This document shows positions 9,667 to 37,156 of a stretch of 64,000 nucleotides of DNA, piece after piece; position 1 is the first letter of the stretch, and each line of letters starts with the position of its first letter. The stretch comes from a virus: IMG/VR virus record IMGVR_UViG_3300041964_000099, positions 32,001 through 96,000 of that record. One strand, given 5' to 3'. The notes beneath the pieces are model-generated. The model searched no databases and was not told the origin of the DNA. It saw only the letters and a program-made list of their open reading frames with translations. Position numbers and translations under genes: made by a program.

Positions 9667-10725
9667 ATGCAATCGTCACAACTACGACTCAATCTCTTCT
9701 CAGCTTCCTGGGAGGAGTTTTTTTTAGATGCGATCGATTTATCCTCCTACGATCGCATCGTTATTTTTCTCTCCGGCGGTAAAGACTCAGTTTGCTGCTT
9801 GCTGATTGTCAGATATCTATTAGAGAAGCAAGGACTGCAAGACAAAATTGAAGTCGAAGCATGGCATCACTGCGTAGATGGGCGCGAAGAAGGCTTAAAT
9901 CTGATGGATTGGGCCTATACAGAGTCCTACTGCCAGAAGCTCTGTGATGCCTTCAATATCAAGCTCTACTTCTCGTGGCTTGAAGGAGGCATGGCGCGAG
10001 AACTGGTCAGGGAAAACCAAGCCAAATCGCGCACCTGGTTTGAAACGCCAGACGGTCTTATGTGTGCCGGTGGTAACTCAAAAGACCTGACTACTCGCCT
10101 GAATTTTCCGCAAACCAGCAATGATCTTAATGTGCGCTGGTGTAGCCCTTACTTAAAAATTGATGTAGGCCGCATCGCTGTTCGCAATCAAAAACGGTTC
10201 AAAGGCAGCCGGACGCTGCTAGTTTCAGGCGAGCGAGCAGAAGAAAGCCCAAAACGAGCCAAGTATTTGCAAATTGAGCCGGATGAAACGCATTGTGCCA
10301 GCCGCTATGTCGATCGCTGGCGACCCGTGCATCACATCGACCAGGTGATAGTTTGGCAGATTATTCAATATTTTGGCGTCAATCCAGCGCCGTCGTATCT
10401 GCTGGGTTTTGGCCGCAAAAGCTGCCGCAACTGCATTTTCAACGGAGATGACGAATGGGCCACGCTGCGGCAAATTGACCCAGAAGGCTTTGCCCGCATT
10501 CTCGCGTTCGAGTTGCTATTCCAAAAAACCATCTTCAACAGCAAGTTGCCGTTTGAGGAGCGCACGATCGAGGCCCGCGCCAATCGCGGCACACCGTTCC
10601 CAAACATGCAGCCCGACGACATTCGCGCTGCCCTCAGCTCCACATTCGATCGTCCAATCCTGCTACCTCCTGACAAATGGAAGTTGCCCGCAGGCGCGTT
10701 TGGCCGTAACTGTGGCCCCACTTAA
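9667..10725 (+). CDS. PAPS reductase-family (PP-loop adenine nucleotide alpha-hydrolase) protein
   Basis: SGGKDS PP-loop, RWCSPYLK, SGERAEES..RA, WRPV, and SCxxC near the C-terminus. Confidence 0.8.
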   Translation: MQSSQLRLNLFSASWEEFFLDAIDLSSYDRIVIFLSGGKDSVCCLLIVRYLLEKQGLQDKIEVEAWHHCVDGREEGLNLMDWAYTESYCQKLCDAFNIKLYFSWLEGGMARELVRENQAKSRTWFETPDGLMCAGGNSKDLTTRLNFPQTSNDLNVRWCSPYLKIDVGRIAVRNQKRFKGSRTLLVSGERAEESPKRAKYLQIEPDETHCASRYVDRWRPVHHIDQVIVWQIIQYFGVNPAPSYLLGFGRKSCRNCIFNGDDEWATLRQIDPEGFARILAFELLFQKTIFNSKLPFEERTIEARANRGTPFPNMQPDDIRAALSSTFDRPILLPPDKWKLPAGAFGRNCGPT

Positions 10726-13071: not shown

Positions 13072-14196
13072 ATGGCAACAACACGACGAACAAAACGCGC
13101 GACTCGCGAAGAATTGCCAGATGAGCTGGCAAACAGCTTTTACGAGTTTGAATGCGTCCAGTTTCTCCAGTCAAAGCACAATGCTTGGGTTGCTACTATT
13201 CCCGCTAGACAAATTCACAGCTTATTTGCTCTGCGCGAGGCTCGCGCTAGTAATCCGCTGGAATGGTGGCAACGTGGTATCAATTTCAGTCGAGTCAAGA
13301 AACTGGTTAAGTATGTGATCGATGCGATGCTGTCTAACCGCCAGAAACGTTACATTCTGCCTTGTGTCACAGTCGCCATCAATGGCGATGTGGACTTTGA
13401 AGAGTATTTTCAAGATCGCAACGATCGGCACAGCGGCATTCTAAAAGTTCAATATGGCGCAGTGTTTTGCTGCGTTGATGGACAGCATAGGCTGTGCGGG
13501 CTGGGAGATTCCTTTAGCGCTCAGCCTGACCTGATGCAGTGTGAATCAATTGCCGTGATGTTTTTTGTTGACTTGGGAGGGCACTTCAAGGAACAAGCTT
13601 TTCTCGATATCAACACAAATGCTGTCCGGCCCAGTCCGTCAATTTTTGCATTATTCAACCACAATGACCCGATCGCAGAAGCGGCGCGGCAGGTGGCGAC
13701 GACAATTCACGCTTTCAAATTAGTGACCGACATGGAAAACACGAACATCCGGCCACGCGACACTTTGAACATTTTCACCCTCAATGCAATCAACGCCGCT
13801 TGCAAGGAATTGTGGAAAGGCATTGAGCTTGAAGAAAATGTTGATCTAGTGGCCGAGACCTTACAATTTTGGTCGATCGTAGAAAAGCACATGGGTGCAT
13901 GGAAAATCATCAGAAGTCTTAACGTCAACAAGTCATTATTTCTATCTGACTACATTGCCTGCAATGCCTTGACTTTGATGGCATTGGGAATGCTGGGCAA
14001 TGTGCTGCGAAAGGAAGGAACCGATTGGGAGTCGGTTCTTCCGCGCCTCGCAACTGTTGACTGGGGGCGGCACAACCCTGAATGGAGAGATCTATTTATC
14101 TTCAACGGCAATCTGGTTAAAACTCAGCAAACATGCCGTGCCTTCGCGACCTGGCTCTACGGCCACGTCAAGACCAGCGATAAACCCGCTGAATAA
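13072..14196 (+). CDS. DGQHR-domain (DndB-like, ParB/Srx superfamily) protein
   Basis: Literal VDGQHRL motif; QRGINxSRV, YILP, EQAFxDINxNAVRPSxS and FTLxAI segments typical of DndB-like proteins; AAGGAG RBS. Confidence 0.85.
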   Translation: MATTRRTKRATREELPDELANSFYEFECVQFLQSKHNAWVATIPARQIHSLFALREARASNPLEWWQRGINFSRVKKLVKYVIDAMLSNRQKRYILPCVTVAINGDVDFEEYFQDRNDRHSGILKVQYGAVFCCVDGQHRLCGLGDSFSAQPDLMQCESIAVMFFVDLGGHFKEQAFLDINTNAVRPSPSIFALFNHNDPIAEAARQVATTIHAFKLVTDMENTNIRPRDTLNIFTLNAINAACKELWKGIELEENVDLVAETLQFWSIVEKHMGAWKIIRSLNVNKSLFLSDYIACNALTLMALGMLGNVLRKEGTDWESVLPRLATVDWGRHNPEWRDLFIFNGNLVKTQQTCRAFATWLYGHVKTSDKPAE

Positions 14197-16254: not shown

Positions 16255-17055
16255 TTAGCCGACGATCGAGGCTGGATTTACATCTTCAATTGCAATGTTT
16301 TTTGCAACCTCAAAAAGATTGCCAAACGCATCGGTCACACGACGATATTGATTCACAAACCTGCGATAGTTTGTGTGGTTGATATCAGCCAGAAAACGCG
16401 CTTCAACAATGCTGTCTGGATTATCTGGCTCTAAGGTATCAAGCAGCCGCAGCAAATCCGGCAATTCAGCAGGGCGCACATAGTCTTCCCGCCGAAAGGT
16501 TACAGCCTCCACAAGGTTTCGCCTTGGCGTCATGATTCGTGAGCTTTCAGTCATGGCGACTTGCTTTTGGTTGGAAACTCGTACCAGTCCTTGCCGCCAC
16601 TCTGGATGCTCTAAGAACTCTCCCAATACGTGATAAATAGGCAAAGATATGTACAGTTTGCCGAGCTGCAATCCTGGAACAGCTAAAATTTCGCTTGGAA
16701 ACGAATTGGTTTGCATAAGTCTCCTCTCAAATTGAATGTCTTGATAGTTCTTTATGTCGATCGTAATAGGTCTGCCGCATTGCGGCCATGCAAAGCGTAG
16801 CTGACTTACAGACCGGCCTGAAGCAATCATCTGCTGGGCAAAAAAATGATTGTGTTGATGCAGCAAGCGAGCATCAGTACGATCGCGGCAGTGAAAAGTA
16901 ATACTTTCCACGTTTGAAGTGGCTTCAGCGCAAAACAGCCTTGTAGCCAGGTCAGTTTCTCCCAGCTTCATCAAAACTGCAACACACTCCGCCTTAAATA
17001 GCTGGCCGTGATGTAGCGTTAAATCGCGTGGATACTCAAATTTCAACTGCTTCAT
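16255..17055 (-). CDS. Hypothetical protein co-transcribed with the repressor
   Basis: ATGA overlap with the repressor stop; 266 aa. Confidence 0.7.
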   Translation of the reverse strand: MKQLKFEYPRDLTLHHGQLFKAECVAVLMKLGETDLATRLFCAEATSNVESITFHCRDRTDARLLHQHNHFFAQQMIASGRSVSQLRFAWPQCGRPITIDIKNYQDIQFERRLMQTNSFPSEILAVPGLQLGKLYISLPIYHVLGEFLEHPEWRQGLVRVSNQKQVAMTESSRIMTPRRNLVEAVTFRREDYVRPAELPDLLRLLDTLEPDNPDSIVEARFLADINHTNYRRFVNQYRRVTDAFGNLFEVAKNIAIEDVNPASIVG

Positions 17056-17720
17056 ACTCGCTTCCCTTCTCTTCTACTTGATCCGTTTTTGCGCTTTCCA
17101 GCGCTCATCAGCTCAGCTACTGACCACTCCTGCCCACCTGGTTTGGTCAGAATTCTCGCCAAACATTCAGCCTGATGCAACGTAATTGACGCTCCGCCAA
17201 GCAAGCTATCAATTACGGCTGGCTCTAGCAGCACGTCCTCTGCAAACGCTTCGATCCGCTGCCTACCAGCAAGGTGACTCCAGGCGCGATCGGGCTTTGC
17301 CATCTCACCCACAATTAACTGGGCAATCGTCAGCTTTGACGAATCGATCTGCATTTGATCGATCAGCAGTTGCACCAGCTCAAATTTTTCTTCTTCTGAA
17401 AGAGTGGAAGCCCATGCCGCAACTCGCGACACGGTTAAAACTTCCCCCTGCGGCGACGCTCCGAAATTTTCCAGCAAAACTGCAAGTGTAATGTCGCCGT
17501 GCAAATAGAGTTCAATCTGGGCCACAGTTGTGCCCAAATAATCTGCCAGCTTGATGCGAGCGCCGCGCATTCGATCGCCTCTGGCCCAGCGTCGCAAAGT
17601 GTCGCGAGAAATTCCAATCAGCTTGGCAGCTTCCGCCTCACTGCGATTTCCGCGCAGACGTTTGATTAAATCAACTTGATTTTTGCGACGGGGATCGGCA
17701 GATGAATTCATGTCTTTCAT
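17052..17720 (-). CDS. XRE-family HTH phage repressor (CI-like)
   Basis: LIKRLRGNRSEAEAAKLIGISRDTLRRWARG..LADYLG is an XRE-type HTH; divergent from a Cro-like gene; no peptidase S24 domain seen. Confidence 0.8.
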   Translation of the reverse strand: MKDMNSSADPRRKNQVDLIKRLRGNRSEAEAAKLIGISRDTLRRWARGDRMRGARIKLADYLGTTVAQIELYLHGDITLAVLLENFGASPQGEVLTVSRVAAWASTLSEEEKFELVQLLIDQMQIDSSKLTIAQLIVGEMAKPDRAWSHLAGRQRIEAFAEDVLLEPAVIDSLLGGASITLHQAECLARILTKPGGQEWSVAELMSAGKRKNGSSRREGKRV

Positions 17721-17729
17721 TAAAGCAAC

Positions 17730-17821
17730 ATCGGCAGAAAATCTACACCCCTGGCCTGAAATTAATCGCTTGAAGTTGAGCTGTCAATCAAACAAGTCAA
17801 CCAATCGGCAGAAAATCTACA
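17730..17821. promoter_or_regulatory. Two identical 18-bp direct repeats (candidate operators)
   Basis: ATCGGCAGAAAATCTACA at 17730-17747 and 17804-17821, between the divergent genes. Confidence 0.7.
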
Positions 17822-17839: not shown

Positions 17840-17869
17840 TTGACTTTGCCAGAAGCGCGTGCCTATACT
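17840..17869 (+). promoter_or_regulatory. Sigma70-type rightward promoter
   Basis: TTGACT-18 bp-TATACT, upstream of the Cro-like gene and the FtsK operon. Confidence 0.65.
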
Positions 17870-17905: not shown

Positions 17906-17940
17906 CAGACAGGTTCAGACAGGTTCAGACAGGTTCAGAC
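17906..17940 (+). repeat. 10-bp tandem repeat, 3.5 copies
   Basis: (CAGACAGGTT)3CAGAC in the predicted leader. Confidence 0.9.
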
Positions 17941-17957
17941 AAGTTGTTTAAGCTGCT

Positions 17958-18260
17958 GTGATGAAGACGATCGATGTGACTGCCGGTGCAACTTCTGTCC
18001 TGCCTCAAAGCTGGGCAGAAGTTGCACAACAATACAACGTCCACCCCAAAGCAATCGAGCGCGATCGCGCTGCACTCGGTCGCCACAACGACCCGATTAA
18101 TAGAGATTTACTGAAGGAAATTGGCCTGATGCGGCGCTGGCTAGCGTTAGGCAATGGAGGCCGGAGCCGATTTAATCGCCCAAATTTTATTGATTTGAAA
18201 AATAAGGGATTACTTGAAGCCCAACTACAGGCAGCAGAAGCCTGTCAAGCCAGCAAGTAA
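17958..18260 (+). CDS. Small HTH protein (Cro- or excisionase-like)
   Basis: WAEVAQQYNVHPKAIERDRAAL is HTH-like; first gene after the rightward promoter. Confidence 0.55.
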   Translation: MMKTIDVTAGATSVLPQSWAEVAQQYNVHPKAIERDRAALGRHNDPINRDLLKEIGLMRRWLALGNGGRSRFNRPNFIDLKNKGLLEAQLQAAEACQASK

Positions 18261-18277
18261 TTTCAAGCTGTCCGATC

Positions 18278-18919
18278 ATGTCTGAAGGCGTCCTTCAGAC
18301 AGCTTCACCCCAGTTCACCCTAGTTCACAAGGAGTTTGATGAAATGATCACATCCTTACAAACCAGCGCTCAAAATGCTTGCGACTACCGTGAGCGTCTT
18401 GAAATGTTGACAACGGCGATCGAAGAAGACGGTCTATGGGACAACGCAGGCAAGCCAATTCGTTCCGAAGAAATTCGGGCGATCGCTCAAGTAGCCACGG
18501 ACATTACATCTGAGCTGACAAAATACTGCCCTGTGGAAGGCTGGATACCACTTGAGCCAGAAGAATTGAAAAGCCACATGATGAATGCCGCCCAAGAAGT
18601 TTTAGACGGTTATCGCTATTTCAACGGTCGATTACCAGACAGTCATGAGTCTCAAGTCCAAGAGCGAGTTTATTTTCTGCTTGGAAAGGTTAAGCCGCTT
18701 CATGTCCGACTGGCAGATTGGCTCAGCCGCATCAACCCCGCTGTTCTAAAAACACTGGCTGTACTTGTTTTGGCTGTTTTATGTCTCGCGCTTTTTCATC
18801 CTACTGGTCAACCCAGCCCTAGCAGCTTCTCCTCTCAAGTTCAACACCTTGGCAAAAACGCATTGAAAAAATTCTGCGTTACGCCAAATGATGTGCCCTT
18901 GAGCTTTGAACTGGACTAA
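18278..18919 (+). CDS. Membrane-anchored hypothetical protein
   Basis: Helical N-terminus; C-terminal TM segment LAVLVLAVLCLALF. Confidence 0.7.
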   Translation: MSEGVLQTASPQFTLVHKEFDEMITSLQTSAQNACDYRERLEMLTTAIEEDGLWDNAGKPIRSEEIRAIAQVATDITSELTKYCPVEGWIPLEPEELKSHMMNAAQEVLDGYRYFNGRLPDSHESQVQERVYFLLGKVKPLHVRLADWLSRINPAVLKTLAVLVLAVLCLALFHPTGQPSPSSFSSQVQHLGKNALKKFCVTPNDVPLSFELD

Positions 18920-18989
18920 ACCAGTCTGAAGCTGTCCAAATCCTCTGATGTCACCCACTTCACTTCGTTCCACTATCTACCGTTAAGTC

Positions 18990-19655
18990 ATGACAGGTTT
19001 TCAAACATTTTCAGCTCAACAAATCTACGCTGCACATCGCATCCTCGCCAAGGATGTCGAAGCGATCGCCGAATACCTGGGATTTGCCGAATCTCGGTTT
19101 AGCAATCTGCAAGTAGAGCAAATTATCAAATTTGTAAAGGAGGCAAAGCAACACGGCAAAACGATCAACCAGTTCATCGCGAGTCTGAAGTCTGCACAGG
19201 CAGAACAGGCAGAACAGCCACAACAAGAAGTGACGCCGGACTTTGGCGGCGACCAGCCAGCCGTAAGCACTGAGTCAGCCCTTGCAAAAGTTCATTTGCA
19301 ATCGAGACAGGATGCACTGCTCGCAGGAGTTGGCGCACAGCTTCAGGAATTCAAAGATTTTGGCAAAGGCAAGCAACTGGTCGTAGAGCTGCTGAATGGC
19401 GATCGCGTTCCTGCCAGCGAATTAGAGCAAGCCATTCTCGATAATGCAAAAGCTTCACTGGCAGCAGCAGCTAAGGGTTTTAACTCTTTTTTGTCGCGCG
19501 ACGGGGGGAAGCTGCAATTTATGACAGCGGATACCCAGCCGCTGACGCTGACAGATGCGATTCAGGCGCACCTCGATCGAAACAACCTCAAGTTGGCAGC
19601 TCTACCAGCAGACCAAACAGTAGATGTCCAAAGCCTGCCCGCAGCAGCCCTATAA
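18990..19655 (+). CDS. Hypothetical protein (N-terminal HTH-like, Ala/Gln-rich)
   Basis: VEAIAEYLGFA segment; 221 aa. Confidence 0.65.
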   Translation: MTGFQTFSAQQIYAAHRILAKDVEAIAEYLGFAESRFSNLQVEQIIKFVKEAKQHGKTINQFIASLKSAQAEQAEQPQQEVTPDFGGDQPAVSTESALAKVHLQSRQDALLAGVGAQLQEFKDFGKGKQLVVELLNGDRVPASELEQAILDNAKASLAAAAKGFNSFLSRDGGKLQFMTADTQPLTLTDAIQAHLDRNNLKLAALPADQTVDVQSLPAAAL

Positions 19656-19672
19656 GCAGAGAGACCGCCCCG

Positions 19673-20374
19673 ATGAAACCCAACTGGATAGGTTCTCTTC
19701 CCCCCTCAGTTTCACGCCCGTTGTGTGGCGTGGTTTTGGCCGTGGCCTGCATCGGTGGCGGCCTGGAACTTGCAAAGCAAGCCTTTGGGCTTGACGTTCC
19801 GCCGTTGAAGCAGACGGCAGTTCCAATTGCTGCAACCGGCCTGTTTGTAGGCATTTGGTTTTCGACCGAGAAAAATCCTTCAGAAGAATTCGTTTCTTCT
19901 GAAGAAGCTGCGGCTGCTCCACCCTCCCCAACCGGCTCGCCGGATGAAAATACTCGTGCGATCGATCTGTACGTGGGATGGGCCAACACGCTGCCAGAGG
20001 ATCGAGCCGTTCAAGCGATCGATCGACTGGCTCAAGTTGCTGCAATGCGTGAGGAAATTAAAAAGCAGCCGTTGCCGCAACAGACACGCCTGTATGGGGA
20101 AATGCCCTGGCAGACGGTCGATCGATTTGTCGTGCCACAGCAAGCCGAACTGCCACCGGCTTCAGCCCCAGCAATCACTTCCCCTGTACGTGAGGAAAAA
20201 ATCAATGAACCTGTTAATCGAAGTTCAGCAGCAGCGCCCACAAGTCCTCAGTCCTTCCGGCTCGAAGAACCTTGCGGCGCGGCCTCAAATGGTTCAACTC
20301 CAGCCTCAAGCGCACAAAAGTTTGAAGCCGTCTTCAACTCAGATACTTGGGCTGATGAGTCGATACCCGTCTAA
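19673..20374 (+). CDS. Two-TM membrane protein with Pro-rich tail
   Basis: Hydrophobic segments LCGVVLAVACIGGGL and AVPIAATGLFVGIWF. Confidence 0.7.
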   Translation: MKPNWIGSLPPSVSRPLCGVVLAVACIGGGLELAKQAFGLDVPPLKQTAVPIAATGLFVGIWFSTEKNPSEEFVSSEEAAAAPPSPTGSPDENTRAIDLYVGWANTLPEDRAVQAIDRLAQVAAMREEIKKQPLPQQTRLYGEMPWQTVDRFVVPQQAELPPASAPAITSPVREEKINEPVNRSSAAAPTSPQSFRLEEPCGAASNGSTPASSAQKFEAVFNSDTWADESIPV

Positions 20375-21207
20375 GCGATCATTCCACCGCTGGGGGTTTC
20401 GCATTGGAGCGCTGGCGATCGCCTTGTGTGCGATCATCCTGCCCAGCTTGAGCGGAACTCATGCAATGGCCGCTGAGCCAAATTCAACAAAACTCGTCAG
20501 TTGAGATCGAGGTAGGGATGCAAATTGAACTAAGAAATGTAGGGAGCATTGTTTTCAACACGGGCGCAGAAAATCAAACTGTCTGGCCTGAAATGAGAGC
20601 GCAATTAGAGCCAGCGCCCTCACCATTGCCATCCCTACCCGCTGCATCTCAAAAGCAAATTGCTGCTTCAGACACATCGCCGCCATCAGCGGCGATCGTT
20701 CCCGCTCCTGCCGGGAAAATCGTTCAACCGCTGCCAACGCCGATTCCAACTCGGCCAGTCGTGCCGATGCAGCCGCCAACGCCACCACCGAGCGTTTTGG
20801 CGTTCCGCGCTGCCAAGCAGCGGCAGCAGATGCAAACTTTTTTGCCGCCACCACCGGCAAGTTTGCAGTTGCCGCCACCGCCCGCAAGCTTGGAGCAGTT
20901 GCAATTAGAACCAGAAAATGTAGAGGAAGAAAATAGCAATTCTTTCTGGTTTGGATTTCTGGATTCTTTTATTGACATTTCACTCATAGTTTTAACCATC
21001 TTGCTAGCTGGCGTAATGGCAATGCGATGGTATGAGGAAAGATCCCAGCCTGAATCGCAAACTCCGGCTCCAACTTCAACGCCACGACCCCAACGCCGAC
21101 CCCAACGCCGACGCCCAACGCCGACCCCAACTTCAACGCCAACCCCTGCGGCTGGCTCTCAGCCTGTTCCAGTTCCAGCAATCCCAATTCCGCAAGGAAG
21201 ACAATGA
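20355..21207 (+). CDS. Secreted/anchored Pro-rich membrane protein (frameshifted in this sequence)
   Basis: Sec-type signal peptide MSRYPSKR..ALAIALCAIILPSLSGTHAMA/AEP in one frame; removing one A from A4 at 20489-20492 joins it to ORF 20461-21207 (Pro-rich stalk, TM ISLIVLTILLAGVMAM, PT repeats). Confidence 0.6.
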
Positions 21208-21680
21208 CCATCAATCCACCTGATGAATGGCGAGAGTGGACAAACACAGTGCATGTCTACAATGAGCCTGTCCCAGAAGAATCGCCAAATCCGCAGCAGA
21301 ACCCTGAAAATAACGCGAAGCCCATTGCGATCGCGATTACTACCTTTCAGTGGCGAGCGATTTTTATGGAAACGTTTTTCTATGCCACAACAGCTTTTGT
21401 CGCGTTCTGGGTGATAGAGAAATTTCTAGGTTTCCTGCTGACTGCTGCCATTGTCTTGATGTCCGTGGCGCTGGCCGCCGCGTTCCTAGTGTATTGCCAT
21501 CGCAGCGGGCCGCTGATTGTGCGAGCCGTGCGGCTTAGCCAGCTTTCTCAGACAGTGAACCTGCGCAGAGACTGGGATGAGTCTATCCATCTCCTGTACC
21601 AGGTCGCCGCGCAATTCGTTTTCCTGTGCGAATTGGCGATCGCCCTGGCAATTGCCTTAAGTTTGACAATTTTGTTGTGA
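21204..21680 (+). CDS. Multi-pass membrane protein
   Basis: About three hydrophobic segments; ATGA coupling to the upstream gene. Confidence 0.7.
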   Translation: MTINPPDEWREWTNTVHVYNEPVPEESPNPQQNPENNAKPIAIAITTFQWRAIFMETFFYATTAFVAFWVIEKFLGFLLTAAIVLMSVALAAAFLVYCHRSGPLIVRAVRLSQLSQTVNLRRDWDESIHLLYQVAAQFVFLCELAIALAIALSLTILL

Positions 21681-21686
21681 AGTGAA

Positions 21687-23240
21687 ATGCTGGCCCGATC
21701 GCTAAATGCAAGTGAGCAAAGATGGCTGTATGAAGCTGTTCAATATGCTTTGGCAACAAAGCAGACGCCAAAAAACTTTGAAGCGCTGTTAGTTGACAGC
21801 TTTCCAGAAGAGTTGCTGCCACAAGCCAAAGCGCTTTCAGTTCAGCATTATCAACACATTGTTAGCACTCAGCCGCAGTTAGTTGCTAATCCAGAGACTC
21901 CATATGAACCCCCCCTAGAAAATCAGCCGCCTGCACATAGCGCTTCTGATTCTGAACCTGTTTATGAACCAGTCTATGAGCCGCAGACTGAAGAAAGTTA
22001 TCAGCAGTACACCACAACTACAACGACAGCGCCCGCAGATGCAGCAGAACCCGATCCGCGTCCCTACTCAGAACCATTCCCGTTAGACCGCAATCCGACG
22101 CGAGAGGAACTTGAGGCAAAGGGGCAAGAACTGCTGTGGATTTGTCGCCGCCGTCGCGCTTCTTGTCTGCCGGTGAACCTTCTCAACAGCGCTCGGTTCT
22201 ATGAATTTCAGATTGTGCCAGACATAGAACAAAACGTTGCCGTTGACGCAGTTATGAAGCTGCAACAAGATTTTATTGTTCATGCTGGCCTTCCCCAATC
22301 GACCTTGCTAGAGCGGCAGTCTGGCTCAATCGGGATTCAAGTGCCAAAAGTGGAATGGGAGCCGCTGCGCTTCCTCAATCACTTTACGCCCAAAGTTATG
22401 CCGCCACAGCCAGAGCTGCCCCTCACGGCCTACATTGGCTTGGATAAAAGGCTGGAATGGATTAAGCAAAGAATTTTAGGAGTGGCGCTAGGTGGTGCGT
22501 TTGAAAGCGGCAAAAGCTGCTGGATCAAGCAAGTTGTTTTGTCGCTGATGGCAAGTCGCAACCCCAATGATTTCAAGGTCATCTTCGTTGATGTCAAGCC
22601 TGAAGGCTATGACATCTTCGATCGATCGCCCTGGTCGCTGGGATGCGACGATTTCTTGTCAACTGAGAGCAACAAATTAGATTGCTTGAGAGCAAAATGC
22701 TCAATTAAAGACCCAGGAGATTTTTACACTTTTCTGCAACTGGCCCTAATAGAAGGGGCTGAACGACAAACGTTGTTTCGCGCACACGGAACAAACAACC
22801 TCTTGGATTTCAACCAGGTGCAGCCGAACATGGCGCTGCCACAGATCCTCGTGATTGTTGATGAAACAGGAATGACGCTCGGCTCACCTGGCAGTAGTTG
22901 GCGCAAAAAAATTGGCCCGCTCTCGATCCAAGCTGTCAAAGCGCTGCGATCGTCAGGGTTCTGCTGGGTTTTTGGTGATCAGCGTCCGGCCAATCGGGTC
23001 ATCCCCGAAGACGTTGACACCAACCTGACGCTGCGAATTGGTTTTCAGGTTGGGGATAAAAATGACAGCGAAATTGTTTTAGGCCGGGGCTACCCCCAAG
23101 CCATGTATTTGCGAGGGCATGGTGATGGCTTTTGTCGCAGTGGCGGGGAATTGCAGCGCTTTCAATCTGCGCTAGTCAAGGACTCTGACATCCTCTCATT
23201 CCTGAGATGGAGCACTCAAAAATATCGAAATTTAGGCTAA
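21687..23240 (+). CDS. FtsK/SpoIIIE-family P-loop ATPase (DNA translocase-like)
   Basis: Walker A GAFESGKS, IFVDVK, Walker B LVIVDE, DQRP, RIGFQV..DSEIVLG, YLRGHGDG; no N-terminal TM or C-terminal gamma domain seen. Confidence 0.85.
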   Translation: MLARSLNASEQRWLYEAVQYALATKQTPKNFEALLVDSFPEELLPQAKALSVQHYQHIVSTQPQLVANPETPYEPPLENQPPAHSASDSEPVYEPVYEPQTEESYQQYTTTTTTAPADAAEPDPRPYSEPFPLDRNPTREELEAKGQELLWICRRRRASCLPVNLLNSARFYEFQIVPDIEQNVAVDAVMKLQQDFIVHAGLPQSTLLERQSGSIGIQVPKVEWEPLRFLNHFTPKVMPPQPELPLTAYIGLDKRLEWIKQRILGVALGGAFESGKSCWIKQVVLSLMASRNPNDFKVIFVDVKPEGYDIFDRSPWSLGCDDFLSTESNKLDCLRAKCSIKDPGDFYTFLQLALIEGAERQTLFRAHGTNNLLDFNQVQPNMALPQILVIVDETGMTLGSPGSSWRKKIGPLSIQAVKALRSSGFCWVFGDQRPANRVIPEDVDTNLTLRIGFQVGDKNDSEIVLGRGYPQAMYLRGHGDGFCRSGGELQRFQSALVKDSDILSFLRWSTQKYRNLG

Positions 23241-24181
23241 TGAACAAAGTATCGCGACGAAGATTTCTGCGTATTGGTGGCGCTTCAGTAATCGGGCTAA
23301 CAGCCTTCACTGAAGCTGAAACTTTGCAGCCGCAGGAAGAATCAATCAGCAGTTCTGTGCCGCTCGACGCGCACGAGCAATCGCTATTAGTCCCTCTAAA
23401 TCAACCTGTTGCTTCGCCTGCTGCGGCCAGGTCGCCCGCTGCCCCTGCGCCTGCGCCGCGATCGCCCACGACGCCACCCCCACCCCCACCAGGCAGTGAA
23501 TTTCGGCGACAAGGGAGGCGCGTTGTGCCTGTGGTCGATAACGATCGACCACAGGCGCGATCCTATACTCCGGCCAAAGGCATGACGCCAGAGATTGAAA
23601 GTCGGGTTTGGGCCGCCTTCCAGCGGGTAATTATGTTCGCCGAAGGAACCTGGTATCGGGGCAGCCCGCATAACGGTTACTTAATCATGTACACAGGCAA
23701 AAATATCAGAGATATCCTGCCGAACTTTCAATATGAAAAGCATCCCTATTTCCTAGTGCCAGCAAATCGCCGCAGCTCTGTAATACCCTGTGGCCTGATT
23801 AAAGGCAGGCGTGTGTGTAGCTGGGCCAGCGGTATTGGGCAGTTTATGCCCGATACGTGGACGGAGTTTTGGCACAAATATCCCAAAGTTTGGTTTCAGT
23901 CGATTCCAGAATTTGGAGCGCAAAATCAAGACCGCATGATCCAAATCCTCGCCGGAGAGTGCGGCGCGTATTGGGCGCTGATGCGCGGCGTGGCGATCGC
24001 TGCTGGCAAAGCAGAGGTGAACCGCGATAATTTGCGCACAGCCATTGTCAAGGCCAGTCCAACTTGGGCTGGTTTGCCAAATTGGTTAGACGAAAGTGCC
24101 CTTGATCAGAATGCTAAGCCGATGGCGGAGCTGGAGAGACTGTTTTATCGTGAACTCAATGATTTACAGCGAGCAGTTTGA
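23240..24181 (+). CDS. Lambda-R-like lysozyme/lytic transglycosylase with twin-arginine (Tat) signal
   Basis: ATG overlaps the FtsK stop (TAATG); SRRRFLR plus a hydrophobic stretch; Pro linker; FAEGT catalytic Glu, GY..M, HP, SxASGxGQF..TW, F..QNQD. Confidence 0.75.
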   Translation: MNKVSRRRFLRIGGASVIGLTAFTEAETLQPQEESISSSVPLDAHEQSLLVPLNQPVASPAAARSPAAPAPAPRSPTTPPPPPPGSEFRRQGRRVVPVVDNDRPQARSYTPAKGMTPEIESRVWAAFQRVIMFAEGTWYRGSPHNGYLIMYTGKNIRDILPNFQYEKHPYFLVPANRRSSVIPCGLIKGRRVCSWASGIGQFMPDTWTEFWHKYPKVWFQSIPEFGAQNQDRMIQILAGECGAYWALMRGVAIAAGKAEVNRDNLRTAIVKASPTWAGLPNWLDESALDQNAKPMAELERLFYRELNDLQRAV

Positions 24182-24678
24182 TGTCTAGAGGCGTTGATGC
24201 GTTTTGGTATAACGCTAGAACAGTTGCACTAATCAGCGCCGCCTTTGCGACGATGGGCGCGACGATCGCGTTGACCTACCTGAGCTGGTGGCTTGCCCTT
24301 TCGACCGTCTTGTGGCTGTGGCTGGTTTGGGCGATCGGTGTTGGCTGCGGTTTGATGCTTGCAATTCGGCTGCATCATCTTCGCTCTAGAGCCTCACCAG
24401 CCTCGATCGCGCAACCTAAGCTGGTAACAGACGCTCAGCCAGTCCAAAGGGTCTCTGACTCGCTTCCGACCCCACCCAGGCACGTTTTACGCTCAGCGAT
24501 CGCAGAGCTGACTGAAAAAGCAATCAGCCTCGAAGGGTTCTGCGTCTATTGCCAAGCGTCGGCTCAAGACTTGCTCGATCGCCCCTACGATCCGAGCCTA
24601 CACGCTGAAGACTGCCCGATCCCAATCGCGCACAAGCTAGTGCAACTGGAGGCCCAAGCCACCCATAAACAAAACTAA
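24178..24678 (+). CDS. Two-TM membrane protein with C-terminal CxxC...HxxxC metal site
   Basis: Hydrophobic residues ~15-62; FCVYC...HAEDC; coupled to the lysozyme stop. Confidence 0.65.
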   Translation: MMSRGVDAFWYNARTVALISAAFATMGATIALTYLSWWLALSTVLWLWLVWAIGVGCGLMLAIRLHHLRSRASPASIAQPKLVTDAQPVQRVSDSLPTPPRHVLRSAIAELTEKAISLEGFCVYCQASAQDLLDRPYDPSLHAEDCPIPIAHKLVQLEAQATHKQN

Positions 24679-24711: not shown

Positions 24712-24954
24712 TTGATCGATCCCGATTCCAGGATTCAGGCCATGATTACTGCCTCCTCCCTCTTAGATCCTCCGCCCATCGAAGCTGACAACATCAGTGA
24801 TAACGAAAATAGCGAAACCAATGTTTCACTATCCGTCGATGTGCCACCAAATGTACGCACGCGAATTCGGATTCAAGCAGCTCTTAAAAATGAGCCAATA
24901 AGAAACGTTGTCATTCGATATTTAGAGCAAGGACTTTCAGCCGACGAAGGCTAG
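24712..24954 (+). CDS. Ribbon-helix-helix (CopG/ParG-like) protein
   Basis: VSLSVDVPPNVRTRIRIQAALKNEPIRNVVIRYLEQGL fits the beta-strand/helix/helix pattern. Confidence 0.65.
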   Translation: MIDPDSRIQAMITASSLLDPPPIEADNISDNENSETNVSLSVDVPPNVRTRIRIQAALKNEPIRNVVIRYLEQGLSADEG

Positions 24955-25425
24955 ACAATAAAACCTCGCCGCCCGATCGCTGAAACCCAGACCAAGGGCG
25001 CTCTACCGATGTCACCCAGGTAGAAGCGCACACAGCAAAAAAACCGCTTTGTGGGCTTCTGCCCTTAAGCTCGAAAAACTCAAAAGTAAAAGACGGCCCT
25101 TCCCCTGATGTCACCCAGTCGCAAGGCCGCCTATCGGTTCCTTTCACTTTGAAACCATGACTAACACCTTAGCCGATCCAAACGGAATCGAGCAAGGAAC
25201 GCAGCTACGCAAAATGGCTGAATTCCTTGCTGTACATAGAAAAAAAAATTTTTTCTATCGCAAAAACCTTCAAAGACCCTTGACACCGTATGTAGGTAGT
25301 CAGGGCTTGAAGGTTTCTTTTTTTAAGAATTCCTTTCGAGTGCTGCTGATACATTACGGCGTCAAGTGTTCTTCAGGAACATTATTGCAGCAAACGGCGT
25401 GCATTCGCGGGCCATAGGACAGTAA

Positions 25426-25459
25426 AAGGCCACCGTTGTCATCACACAACGGTGGCCTT
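25426..25459 (+). terminator. 14-bp stem hairpin with downstream T-rich tract
   Basis: AAGGCCACCGTTGT-CATCAC-ACAACGGTGGCCTT followed by CGCTTTTCTT. Confidence 0.6.
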
Positions 25460-26886: not shown

Positions 26887-28038
26887 ATGACACAAACCAC
26901 ACCTCAACCCAAAGACAAACCGCACTATCGGTTTTACCTTGAACAGATAAAAGAAGACTACGAACAAGGCAATTTAACCGCGAAAGGAGCGCTACTCATG
27001 GCTCTGCGGATCATGCGGAGACCGGGGCATCAGCTCAGAATCACGAACATGGATGACTTTGCCAAGATCATTGGCTGCAATGCCCGCACCTGCTACAGCT
27101 CAATTAACAGGCTGAAAGAAGAGAAGCTAATTGAGTGGAAAGATGTCGCGGGCATTGATATCTGGATTCCCGTCAGGAAAGAATCAGCCGTTGCTAAACG
27201 CAAAATTGGCATTGATCAAACGATCAGTGGCACTGATCAAACGATCAATCCTACTGATCAAACGATCAGTGGCACTGATCAAACGATCAATGACACCCCC
27301 TTAGAATCCTTGTCAGAGGCCGATTCTAGCGATCCCCCCAATTCTTTCTCAGATAATTCTTCAATTTTTTCTCAAAGAGAGAGAGAAAGCGCGGAAGATT
27401 TTGAAAAATTAGAACAGCCGTCTGCTTCGTTGCCGGAACAAAACGAACCCCCCACAATCCCAGACAACACGGGTGGAGACCAAAGTTCCGCCGCGCCTGC
27501 TGCGGCCCCGTTCGACTGGAAAACTTATCACTGGGCTGGATACGAAAAGGCTGGAGATGGTGGCAGCGATCCTAAGTTTTGGGATTGGGCCAGAGACTTT
27601 GTTGTTGGACTGGCTGAAAAACGCGCAAATTCAGATAGCCCGATCGGTGAAATTGATGCCTATACCCGCAAGTGCATCCAGACCCGTGCAGCAGCAGGGT
27701 ATGAAAAATATCTGATTTCGATCGGGGTTTTAGCACCTCCTCAAGCCCCACCCCAAGCTGCAAGTCAAACTGAATCGGTGAGAGGTCGCGGCATTCATTG
27801 GTCTGAATCAGGCAGTTGGGAAAATCCTCCCAGTGATTTGAGCGAGGAATTTGCCCTCTTTAAGATTCATTGGTCGCGTTTAGAGCTGGGCTGGAAGAAT
27901 CCGGCCTTCCTGGAATGGATTGAAAAAGCTCAGGCCCTGCAAGCTTTCCGTTGGGATAACTACAGCAGTCTGCACACCTTGCCGGACTGGGCTGTAGCGA
28001 AGCTAGCTCACGATCTTTCAAACACAAAATTCCTATGA
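26887..28038 (+). CDS. Phage replication initiator (lambda O-like architecture)
   Basis: N-terminal wHTH (FAKIIGCNARTCYSSINRLKEEKLI); internal 21-bp iterons; AGGAGCAGGA RBS. Confidence 0.7.
   Translation: MTQTTPQPKDKPHYRFYLEQIKEDYEQGNLTAKGALLMALRIMRRPGHQLRITNMDDFAKIIGCNARTCYSSINRLKEEKLIEWKDVAGIDIWIPVRKESAVAKRKIGIDQTISGTDQTINPTDQTISGTDQTINDTPLESLSEADSSDPPNSFSDNSSIFSQRERESAEDFEKLEQPSASLPEQNEPPTIPDNTGGDQSSAAPAAAPFDWKTYHWAGYEKAGDGGSDPKFWDWARDFVVGLAEKRANSDSPIGEIDAYTRKCIQTRAAAGYEKYLISIGVLAPPQAPPQAASQTESVRGRGIHWSESGSWENPPSDLSEEFALFKIHWSRLELGWKNPAFLEWIEKAQALQAFRWDNYSSLHTLPDWAVAKLAHDLSNTKFL
27211..27294 (+). repeat. Four 21-bp iterons; probable replication origin
   Basis: AYTGATCAAACGATCARTSVY x4 at 27211, 27232, 27253 and 27274, followed by an AT-rich stretch at ~27340-27380. 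Confidence 0.75.
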
Positions 28039-31966: not shown

Positions 31967-32047
31967 TAGGGCATTGCCGATTTAATTGTGAGAGGTTGGC
32001 ATCCTCAATTTGATGTGAGTTCAAAACAACTAATTTGGAAGGTAAAA

Positions 32048-37090: not shown

Positions 37091-37156
37091 GGGGTGACAT
37101 CAGGATTGCAATACTCTTAATGTGCCCAGCGGCCAAACCAACAGCGCTCAAAGGTT

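Follow-up and report, generated by a model that had tools for sequence, protein, structure and literature searches.

Why would a virus of filamentous cyanobacteria carry, among its early genes, an FtsK-like ATPase beside an exported wall hydrolase and several small membrane proteins? We addressed this question in a 64,000-nucleotide stretch (the window; positions 32,001 to 96,000 of IMG/VR record IMGVR_UViG_3300041964_000099) of a 121-kb virus whose host group is the filamentous cyanobacteria. The early operon at 17958-24678 consists of nine plus-strand genes, tightly spaced or overlapping, and all the elements described in the initial annotation were found at the positions given there. Its predicted products suggest an apparatus that carries DNA through the cell envelope and does without a relaxase. 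Our preferred reading, which we hold tentatively, is that of one envelope-embedded DNA-translocation module whose likeliest use would be non-lytic passage to neighboring cells.

Operon layout and control region

The operon lies behind a promoter that faces a minus-strand gene (17052..17720), as first described. The 222-aa product of this gene has HTH matches at residues 20-50, to Pfam HTH_3 (2.1e-5) among other families, and is a candidate repressor of the operon. The promoter itself is a sigma-70-like site, TTGACT-18-TATACT (17840..17869, plus strand), recognized by consensus match only (10/12 positions); it is the best among nine promoter-like sites within 15.5-28.5 kb, a count that does not exceed what shuffling predicts. 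In the space from the regulator gene to the -35 hexamer, the exact 17-bp direct repeat TCGGCAGAAAATCTACA is found twice on the plus strand (17731-17747 and 17805-17821; two matches observed against 0.21 expected), an arrangement from which we infer an operator-like function. The leader ahead of ORF1 holds four tandem copies of the 10-bp unit CAGACAGGTT (17906..17945, plus strand), a candidate protein-binding site that may be either regulatory or clt-like.

ORF5 to ORF9 are translationally coupled. ORF5 and ORF6 overlap in ATGA, 6 nt separate ORF6 from ORF7, the TAA of ORF7 (23238-23240) gives its last A to an ORF8 ATG at 23240 (TAATG), and ORF8 and ORF9 overlap in TGATG. The reported overlap between the start of the muralytic gene and the FtsK stop codon is therefore real at 23240, and there is a second in-frame ATG at 23207. 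Downstream, two further small plus-strand ORFs of 80 and 86 aa (24712..25417), without family matches, are uncertain members of the operon; they precede a strong plus-strand hairpin with a T-rich tail (25426..25459; 14-bp stem, 8 GC pairs), which is probably the end of the transcription unit.

Besides ORF7 and ORF8, five products have transmembrane (TM) segments, in keeping with the several TM and Pro-rich proteins originally noted, and of the 21 ORFs with a hydrophobic segment in the whole genome, 5 are in this operon. ORF2 (18278..18919; 213 aa) consists of about 148 aa followed by a C-terminal TM anchor (hydropathy segment 149-179), with no family match. ORF4 (19673..20374; 233 aa, 11.6% Pro) has an N-terminal TM or signal anchor and a weak lipobox-like LAVAC, while ORF5 (20461..21207; 248 aa, 19% Pro) has a single TM segment at 162-191 and a basic, Pro-rich tail. 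ORF6 (21204..21680; 158 aa), immediately before the ATPase gene, has three to four TM segments and showed no detectable relation to the 4TM N-terminal domain of FtsK by hhalign. ORF9 (24178 or 24181 to 24678; 166 aa) begins with two to three TM segments and ends in a domain of ca. 100 aa, again without a family match. ORF3 (18990..19655; 221 aa) is soluble, lacks TM segments and gave only sub-threshold family matches. ORF1 (17958..18260; 100 aa), also soluble and HTH-like by eye only, found no family match in the four family libraries searched; its position is that of a Cro-like gene or a DNA-binding adaptor.

ORF7, an FtsK-type ATPase

By its sequence and predicted fold, ORF7 (21687..23240; 517 aa) is a soluble dsDNA motor of the FtsK type whose catalytic motifs are intact. 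It is made up of a 3-helix bundle (residues 8-61), a disordered linker rich in Pro, Thr, and Glu (62-125), and an alpha+beta motor (126-517), in which Walker A (GAFESGKS), Walker B (VIVDE), and a QRP motif were recognized, the catalytic motifs sitting in invariant alignment columns. At the sequence level it matched FtsK in the PDB (3.8e-11), TcpA (6e-6), and phrog_1358 (1.8e-26). Its AF2 model (pLDDT 86) matched the FtsK-dsDNA structures 6t8g/6t8o in Foldseek (4.6e-23, target TM-score 0.78, ca. 400 aligned columns), and TcpA (0.63) and EccC/EssC (ca. 300 columns) less well. The description of ORF7 as an FtsK/SpoIIIE-family ATPase devoid of TM segments and gamma domain was thus borne out; a C-terminal wHTH is likewise absent, and there is no identified clt-like target. 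Kinship with TraB was not: in the tree, ORF7 falls within a small clade of TM-less proteins adjoining TcpA/TcpB (SH-like support 94), apart from the Streptomyces plasmid FtsK-like (presumed TraB) protein and also from E. coli FtsK.

The initial annotation had raised packaging and ESX-type ATPases as alternatives. ORF7 is not the packaging ATPase, because the phage has its TerL, portal, and prohead protease genes at other positions, and it is not ESX-like in architecture, having a single domain and a longer match to FtsK. We consider it very improbable that the operon is no DNA machine at all, being instead a protein secretion module of the EssC/EccC kind or an early superinfection-exclusion or defense module. 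The top NCBIfam match of the ATPase is indeed the T7SS EccCa domain (6.5e-13, well short of its cut-off), the second-best library match has three ATPase domains, and PADLOC matched the FtsK-like C-terminus of SspH (2.1e-14). However, ORF7 has a single motor domain and neither an FHA domain nor a TM segment, the multi-domain clade is separate in the tree, no T7SS partner or substrate family was found in the operon (Pfam, PHROGs, NCBIfam), and the other PADLOC components are absent. To our knowledge, T7SS are known only from monoderms and mycolata, a range at odds with a diderm cyanobacterial host.

ORF8, an exported GH104 hydrolase

ORF8 (23207 or 23240 to 24181; 324 aa, or 313 aa from the ATG at 23240) is, as read from its sequence, a GH104 lytic transglycosylase with a twin-arginine export signal, which upholds the claim of a Tat-exported wall hydrolase. 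After the signal (SRRRFLRIGG) come a hydrophobic region, a linker rich in Pro, and a domain of the lambda R type whose catalytic Glu sits in a FAEGT motif. ORF8 matched the endolysin family phrog_90 (1.6e-10) and, in the ESM Atlas, a cluster auto-named "Muramidase (Phage lambda lysozyme)" (0.95). In BLASTP, it aligned with residues 10-128 of lambda R (4e-4), the SEGT of R falling on AEGT, and better with a Calothrix plasmid GH104 (3e-8; hhalign probability 88.5%), with which it has in common a two-Cys insert, CxxIxGRRVCS, absent from lambda R. Its catalytic domain is therefore related to that of lambda R, but ORF8 differs from R and from SAR/Sec-exported endolysins in its twin-arginine signal, its linker, its insert, and the location of its gene in an early operon, translationally coupled to the ATPase gene.

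These relationships raise the possibility that the operon is a mosaic in which ORF8 and ORF9, perhaps with ORF4-ORF6, form a lysis system and the ATPase has an unrelated accessory role, an explanation we regard as somewhat unlikely. A lysis role for ORF8 is possible since it carries the only recognizable muralytic domain among the ca. 148 ORFs of the phage and since ORF9, whose start overlaps the ORF8 stop, is holin-like in topology (two to three TM segments, then a basic stretch). Moreover, the nearest annotated phage relatives of ORF8 (in Synechococcus phage S-T4 and Pseudomonas phage DDSR119) are, like phrog_90 and lambda R, labeled endolysin or muramidase, and ORF4 and ORF5, being Pro-rich proteins of the envelope, recall some spanins. 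On the other hand, these genes belong to an early rightward operon between the cro-like gene and rep rather than to the late-gene end, the ATPase gene stands between ORF6 and ORF8 and is coupled in translation to the latter, and an enzyme with a Tat signal needs no holin for its export. Family searches found no holin or spanin match, and an unrecognized endolysin may exist elsewhere, as the genome is poor in Pfam matches. The genomic context of GH104 genes, described below, also speaks against lysis.

Recurrence on Nostocales plasmids and in other phages

We report here that the pairing of FtsK-like and GH104 genes recurs on Nostocales plasmids; a full-text literature search found no description of their FtsK-like/GH104/M23 module. 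In all 14 Nostocales plasmids carrying a GH104 with the insert, pCC7120beta included, a membrane-anchored GH104 is encoded near a soluble FtsK-like ATPase (ca. 100 nt to ca. 2.4 kb away), among small TM proteins. The colinear order, read in three plasmids (two of Calothrix and pCC7120beta), is small TM proteins, M23 peptidase, TM-anchored GH104, and soluble FtsK-like ATPase, with examples in pCC7120beta (170.5-180.3 kb) and Calothrix NIES-4105 plasmid1 (382.6-393.4 kb). The VirD4-type coupling protein gene lies ca. 50 to 115 kb from the module in each of three plasmids tested. Thus, the closest detectable relative of ORF8 is a plasmid GH104 that is always beside an FtsK-like gene, whereas among 34 IMG/VR loci with GH104 relatives, none had an FtsK-like motor within 8 kb, the insert, or the RR motif (all 0/34).

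The plasmid modules resemble the phage operon in the soluble ATPase with a long non-TM N-terminal region, the adjoining membrane-targeted GH104 with its insert, the many small TM proteins, and the filamentous cyanobacterial hosts. Nevertheless, the plasmid ATPases and ORF7 belong to different clades, the gene order is reversed (GH104 before ATPase in plasmids, ATPase before GH104 in the phage), the plasmid GH104 has a TM anchor where ORF8 has a Tat signal, and the plasmids add an M23 peptidase. Cyanophage CrV-01T offers a second parallel, with a Cro/C1 gene followed by genes for two soluble and three small TM proteins and then a soluble FtsK-like gene (gp053). Like ORF7, gp053 and the FtsK/SpoIIIE-like proteins of Bastille-like Bacillus phages and cluster J mycobacteriophages are TM-less and single-domain, but they fall in other clades, and a GH104 adjacent to the motor gene, as beside ORF7, was found in none of the large-phage loci examined.

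Among the proteins of the ORF7 operon, homologues were detectable only for the ATPase in CrV-01T and for the ATPase and hydrolase in the plasmids. The proposed co-conservation therefore stands for the grouping of ATPase, GH104, and small TM proteins on 14 plasmids and fails for the membrane proteins, none of which is detectably shared; similarly, the synteny with CrV-01T extends to an FtsK-like gene grouped with small TM proteins downstream of a Cro-like gene, the remaining proteins lacking detectable homologues. Since the ATPase clades differ and no membrane protein is shared, we describe the modules as compositional analogues and make no claim of orthology.

Large temperate phages commonly carry FtsK-like accessory genes (the phage collection contains 124 such records), and an FtsK-type dsDNA motor could act on the element's own DNA within a single cell line, either by drawing in the remainder of the genome once its leading part has entered on infection or by clearing or segregating plasmid-prophage copies at closing septa, into hormogonia or akinetes. 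The operon genes are early and adjoin rep (26887-28038), with a ParA-type ATPase among the genes further along, and PMC8597652 cites a proposal that the SpoIIIE-like genes found in Bacillus phages serve to partition phage genomes into spores. We nonetheless consider this role unlikely, as segregation has no need of a wall hydrolase that is exported or of Pro-rich proteins that span the periplasm. In addition, ORF7 has no gamma domain for activating a Xer-type recombinase, the tyrosine recombinase gene is ca. 50 kb away, and such a motor gene is absent from the related large cyanophages CL131 and PaV-LD.

A possible route across the envelope

In the translocation module that we favor, an ORF7 hexamer would be anchored at the inner membrane via its 3-helix domain and long flexible linker, with at least one of the TM proteins holding it there. 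ORF4 and ORF5, Pro-rich and single-pass, would span the periplasm, the exported ORF8 transglycosylase would locally open the peptidoglycan, and the motor would then drive double-stranded DNA of the element through the envelope with no need for a relaxase. The least certain step is the last, in which the element would pass non-lytically to neighboring cells within or between filaments; transfer between cells is plausible, and septa may be a route.

The window had been reported to lack relaxase, VirB4, and T4SS genes, and Pfam searches extended this to the whole 121-kb genome (ca. 148 ORFs; thresholds from E<=1e-4 to 0.1, varying by search), where no relaxase, VirB4, VirD4, or T4SS gene was found, although this absence is weak evidence because the genome is very poor in Pfam matches overall. 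Consequently, no gene was found on the element that would make the ATPase a coupling protein. Of the earlier interpretation, what stands is a genuine FtsK-type dsDNA motor accompanied by an exported hydrolase, in a pairing that recurs; the clustering with TraB or FtsK does not.

Comparison with known conjugation systems

If it does serve non-lytic passage, the module would resemble Streptomyces TraB/Spd or Thermus TdtA in function while being a member of neither family. The closest functional analogy is TraB/Spd of Streptomyces plasmids, which likewise relies on one FtsK-type motor plus small membrane proteins, with neither relaxase nor VirB4, in a filamentous host and with a divergently transcribed regulator gene. 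Unlike TraB, ORF7 has no N-terminal TM domain, C-terminal wHTH, or clt recognition, and no Spd homologue was detected. Furthermore, the host envelope is diderm, the module adds a Tat-exported GH104, and the carrier is a tailed phage.

The Tcp locus of Clostridium perfringens pCW3 (TcpA/TcpB, TcpD/E, TcpG) likewise encodes a wall hydrolase and small membrane proteins along with an FtsK-like ATPase. In the tree, TcpA/TcpB is the named branch closest to the ORF7 clade, and TcpA was recovered in the PDB searches as well. However, Tcp also requires the relaxase TcpM, the VirB4-like ATPase TcpF, and TcpH, none of which was found in the phage; TcpA has TM helices and ORF7 does not, and TcpG is a glucosaminidase, whereas ORF8 is a predicted GH104 enzyme.

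Virus genome and operon architecture

The virus genome, an IMG/VR record, comprises 121,302 bp (98% complete according to CheckV), with bases 32001 to 96000 in the window. Portal and major capsid protein are encoded, along with the large terminase and the prohead protease, and so are a sigma-70 factor and a ParA-type ATPase. The majority of its ORFs have no Pfam match. By portal similarity, the nearest isolated relatives are large phages, first Aphanizomenon phage CL131 and Planktothrix phage PaV-LD (both from filamentous cyanobacteria) and, after them, Synechococcus phage S-CBS4. A Rep protein weakly similar to DnaD/O is encoded at 26887-28038, and a tyrosine recombinase (Pfam Phage_integrase, 1e-28) lies outside the window on the minus strand (G000:C1:2295-3344, in whole-genome numbering); the latter may be an integrase, or else resolve the dimers of a plasmid prophage in the manner of Cre/Xer. 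The genome also codes for a DndB-family protein (1.3e-69) and a weakly PAPS-reductase-like protein, both upstream of the regulator gene (13072-14196 and 9667-10725), and for a GGDEF diguanylate cyclase domain (6.4e-45) among the ORFs of G000 1-47194.

The region 17958-24678 is occupied by nine plus-strand genes (ORF1 to ORF9), separated by gaps of 6 to 86 nt or, in three cases, overlapping (ATGA for ORF5/ORF6, TAATG for ORF7/ORF8 and TGATG for ORF8/ORF9). Upstream, TTGACT-18-TATACT (17840-17869), the closest match to a sigma-70 promoter in the region, is faced by the divergently transcribed gene of a 222-aa HTH protein, and two exact 17-bp intergenic direct repeats (17731-17747 and 17805-17821) flank this divergent promoter region. 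The operon leader carries four tandem 10-bp CAGACAGGTT repeats (17906-17945), and the first convincing terminator, a strong hairpin with a T-rich tail, is found at 25426-25459. Hydrophobic segments occur in the products of ORF2, ORF4, ORF5, ORF6 and ORF9, and just 21 ORFs genome-wide, these five included, have one; ORF4 and ORF5 contain 11.6% and 19% proline, respectively. None of the TM proteins had a match in Pfam, PHROGs, NCBIfam or PADLOC. The initial annotation, made from sequence, had described the operon accurately, in its genes, overlaps, promoter and TM or Pro-rich products, including the ATG of the muralytic gene placed over the FtsK stop.

Two smaller features were seen in this region. 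A 49-codon ORF in another frame (20355-20504, plus strand) fills the gap between ORF4 and ORF5 and overlaps the ORF5 start; its product resembles a signal peptide, with a basic N-terminal region followed by IGALAIALCAIILPSL and THA. This product might add a sixth small membrane protein to the operon, or ORF5 may truly start with a signal peptide by way of a frameshift or a sequencing error. The exact 10-mer GATGTCACCC is present at 18947, 25008 and 25107 on the plus strand and at 37092 on the minus strand; two of these copies fall in the 200-nt gap 24955-25156, and the others lie shortly upstream of ORF3 and of a 93-aa late gene. The count of 5 does not clearly exceed the chance expectation (shuffled sequences average 2.3, and 9 of 100 shuffles reach 5).

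ORF7 is a predicted FtsK-type motor

From its sequence and structural model, ORF7 is predicted to be an active FtsK-type dsDNA motor. A sequence search of the PDB recovered FtsK motor structures (3.8e-11), TcpA (6e-6) and YukB (9e-4), and the match among PHROGs was phrog_1358, "FtsK/SpoIIIE-like" (1.8e-26). The Pfam FtsK_SpoIIIE model gave a borderline score of 23.3 bits for a cut-off of 24 (26.7 bits when neighbouring in-frame stretches are summed), and NCBIfam EccCa was sub-threshold (48 bits versus a cut-off of 509). The AlphaFold2 model, built from a 70-sequence alignment (mean pLDDT of 86), consists of a three-helix bundle (residues 8-61), a disordered linker (62-125) and the motor (126-517). 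The top Foldseek matches of this model were FtsK motor-dsDNA complexes (E of 4.6e-23, target TM-score of 0.78 over ca. 400 columns; rmsd of 3.1 Å to 6t8o_A), with TcpA next (0.61-0.65) and EccC/EssC aligned over only ca. 300 columns. Both elements of the FtsK/SpoIIIE core are present, namely, a RecA-like beta domain with its motifs and an alpha domain, and the Walker A (GAFESGKS), Walker B (VIVDE) and QRP (DQRP) motifs fall in invariant alignment columns.

The N-terminal 4TM domain of FtsK is absent from ORF7, which has no hydrophobic segment at all, and neither a gamma wHTH nor a match to Pfam FtsK_gamma was found. The protein ends at residue 517, right after the last motor helix (499-512), and the FtsK alignment stops at 502; there is no second ATPase domain and no room for a gamma domain. 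Sequence, model and Foldseek therefore bear out the earlier description of an FtsK/SpoIIIE-family ATPase devoid of TM and gamma domains, which would need partners for membrane attachment and for the choice of its DNA target. The idea that ORF6 and ORF7 are a split FtsK was discarded (hhalign probability of 1% between ORF6 and FtsK 4TM domains).

The initial annotation had named packaging and ESX-type ATPases as identities that would speak against a DNA-transfer role, and ORF7 is neither. The phage codes for its own TerL (phrog_5989, 9e-29), portal and prohead protease, separate from ORF7 (110-118 kb and 98-99 kb of the whole genome). A type VII ATPase (EssC/EccC) is contradicted by the single motor domain, the lack of TM segments and a structural match shorter than that to FtsK. 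A PRD1-type membrane packaging module was also rejected, since this tailed phage has its own TerL and portal and its ORF7 is a complete FtsK motor, not a small A32-type ATPase. As for known defence systems, the sole match (PADLOC) was to the generic FtsK-like end of SspH. That the module serves protein secretion or defence seems to us very improbable.

Phylogeny and relatives of ORF7

When all 1.84 billion representatives were scanned with HMMER for relatives of ORF7, 6,853 matches resulted, only one of them close (P0006, 38% identity). In a FastTree phylogeny of 179 motor domains, ORF7 grouped with proteins that have one motor domain and no TM segment, in a clade of 12 members (SH-like support of 97). 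The members read (P0006, P0008, P0010, P0041, P0042, P0050, P0110 and P0028) have a common plan of helical N-terminal domain, mostly Pro/Gln-rich linker and motor. This clade adjoins TcpA/TcpB and some giant multidomain proteins and is apart from the one that includes gp205 of mycobacteriophage Baka and E. coli FtsK together with an FtsK-like protein from a Streptomyces plasmid. Since the deep nodes are weak and the branches long, only the local ORF7 clade is reliable. ORF7 does not qualify as a TraB motor, in that it has no wHTH and lies outside the clade of the Streptomyces protein (counted as TraB-like from its plasmid context alone), with the reservation that the nodes separating them are deep. 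The tree position does not decide the function of ORF7. The motor might serve internalisation or segregation of the genome, a use of a dsDNA motor that we consider rather improbable here.

No protein close to ORF7, to the ORF8 hydrolase domain or to the clade profile came up in a word-index search, and metagenome scans gave no matches. No close viral relatives appeared in viral scans with ORF7, the portal, P0041 and P0042, and 80 distant viral FtsK-like loci had no further protein in common with the operon.

A parallel layout was found in the Cylindrospermopsis cyanophage CrV-01T (MH636380.1, L087:4548-9440), whose host is also filamentous. There, the genes after Cro/C1 specify, in order, an HTH-like and a soluble (216 aa) protein, two small TM proteins, another soluble protein (138 aa), one more small TM protein and, finally, a soluble FtsK-like protein of 672 aa. 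The layout is analogous to that of the operon, with sequence similarity in the ATPase alone.

The ORF8 hydrolase and the lysis question

ORF8 begins with MNKVSRRRFLRIGGASVIGLTAFTEA, a predicted textbook twin-arginine motif with its hydrophobic region; by eye, the putative Tat signal shows SRRRFLR, followed by IGGASVIGLTAF and then by TEA. A Pro-rich linker and the catalytic domain come next. The source database's gene call (P0158, 199 aa) lacks both signal and linker, and the omitted part (23207-23581) is in frame upstream, in an open frame whose start overlaps the ORF7 stop. No Pfam match was obtained, but the domain is similar to the endolysin family phrog_90 (1.6e-10) and to an ESM Atlas cluster automatically named lambda-lysozyme muramidase (0.95), and BLASTP aligned ORF8 with residues 10-128 of lambda R (4e-4), with the SEGT of R opposite AEGT. 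A bridge to lambda R also exists through a GH104 protein of Calothrix plasmids (3e-8, then 4e-22). ORF8 is thus probably a GH104 lambda-lysozyme-type lytic transglycosylase, with the catalytic Glu in the E-G-T motif; the fold assignment rests on sequence, a single-sequence AlphaFold2 model having reached a pLDDT of 38.

ORF8 could instead be the endolysin, and the operon would then be a mosaic that includes a lysis cassette. The only matches of ORF8 in the phage collection are a muramidase/endolysin of Synechococcus phage S-T4 and an endolysin of Pseudomonas phage DDSR119. Because no second muralytic family was found among the ca. 148 ORFs, the last genes of the late operon match no PHROG and the topology of ORF9 is holin-like, this reading stays alive; ORF8 and ORF9 are nevertheless located in the early operon, whereas a canonical lysis cassette is expected in the late region. 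No holin or spanin family was matched in the operon (Pfam, PHROGs), although holins are too diverse for this negative to count. On balance, we regard an endolysin role as doubtful but worth keeping in mind. If correct, lysis by a Tat-exported endolysin that is cotranslated with a DNA motor would itself be uncommon.

A module of similar composition on Nostocales plasmids

A tblastn search of PLSDB with ORF7 touched two Calothrix plasmids, which provided the entry point to a plasmid module. They carry a packed operon of small, mostly TM proteins followed by an M23 peptidase, a hypothetical protein and a soluble 722-aa FtsK-like ATPase. The hypothetical protein is a TM-anchored GH104 (33% identity to lambda R, 4e-22) and the best detectable relative of ORF8 (3e-8, hhalign probability of 88.5%); the two have an insert absent from lambda R (CGLIKGRRVCS in ORF8, CAPINGRRVCS in Calothrix). 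The module was delimited at L102:1095-11839 (AP018291.1), L104:24036-34491 (AP025019.1) and L105:6268-17055 (NC_003240.1, pCC7120beta). In pCC7120beta of Nostoc PCC 7120 it is colinear with that of Calothrix, with an ISNsp5 element splitting the GH104 gene from the ATPase gene. The module's GH104 was detected on 14 Nostocales plasmids and its FtsK-like gene on all 14, ca. 100 nt to ca. 2.4 kb away. Among 34 IMG/VR loci that carry GH104 relatives and served as a control, none had an FtsK-like motor within 8 kb, the insert or an RR motif. The VirB4 Pfam model had no match in the three plasmids tested, where the gene of a VirD4-type coupling protein was ca. 50-115 kb from the module. Therefore, the module is not simply the coupling protein of the plasmids' T4SS. 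Literature searches turned up no account of the operon type, nor did full-text searches for the plasmid module.

What recurs on mobile elements of filamentous cyanobacteria is a composition, in which many small TM proteins accompany a soluble FtsK-like motor and a GH104 of one subtype that is targeted to the membrane, and not a demonstrably orthologous operon, because the plasmid and CrV-01T ATPases sit in a different clade from ORF7, no membrane protein is detectably common to the phage operon and these modules, and the module is absent from CL131 and PaV-LD, which are related phages. Beyond the ATPase and the hydrolase, neither BLASTP nor hhalign gave orthology with the CrV-01T or plasmid modules. 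Of the co-conservation asked for in the initial annotation, the pairing of GH104 with an FtsK-like gene stands, while the other proteins are not detectably homologous. Apart from this, a Pseudanabaena PCC 7367 plasmid (L088:6846-10954) has genes for a soluble FtsK-like ATPase and a KAP-type P-loop NTPase with overlapping start and stop in one operon, which suggests that the Nostocales-plasmid ATPase clade has been put to another use here, possibly in defence.

Proposed role and comparison with known transfer systems

Our tentative proposal, to which we give somewhat less than even weight, is that the operon specifies a single envelope machine around a dsDNA pump. With its N-terminal domain and linker, the ORF7 motor would attach to the TM proteins; the Pro-rich proteins would span the periplasm, the putatively Tat-exported transglycosylase would open the wall locally, and the DNA of the element would be moved without a relaxase. 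Transfer between the cells of a filament, which the initial annotation had put forward, is the most attractive use of such a machine, albeit an unlikely one on present evidence. A wider claim, equally speculative, is that a temperate tailed cyanophage or phage-plasmid spreads non-lytically along or between filaments by means of a relaxase-free FtsK-type dsDNA machine, and that the GH104 and FtsK-like module of the plasmids, pCC7120beta included, is an undescribed DNA-transfer system distinct from the MPF_C T4SS.

To our knowledge, relaxase-free FtsK-type transfer has been demonstrated only in actinomycetes (TraB) and, in another form, in Thermus (TdtA). If a virus of filamentous cyanobacteria had a comparable module, it could also spread by a second, non-lytic route, and this would bear on the question of what passes cyanobacterial septa. 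The plasmid module occurs in the model strains Nostoc PCC 7120, Anabaena variabilis ATCC 29413 and Fremyella/Tolypothrix PCC 7601, which are genetically tractable, so that the transfer hypothesis is directly testable.

In a T4SS with VirD4/TcpA coupling, the ATPase would be accompanied by a relaxase and VirB4. The absence of relaxase, VirB4 and T4SS genes noted earlier for the window extends to the ca. 148 ORFs of the genome, where the Pfam relaxase, CagE_TrbE_VirB and T4SS-DNA_transf models had no match (divergent members could escape them) and the VirC1 match is the ParA-type ATPase. The Tcp locus bears a looser functional likeness, the phage operon being without its relaxase and VirB4-like protein. 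The Streptomyces TraB/Spd system is the closest in function, but the phage ATPase differs from TraB in having no TM domain, no wHTH and no place in the TraB clade. The phage operon thus belongs to the FtsK motor family through ORF7 and to GH104 through ORF8 and is a member of neither the TraB/Spd nor the Tcp system.
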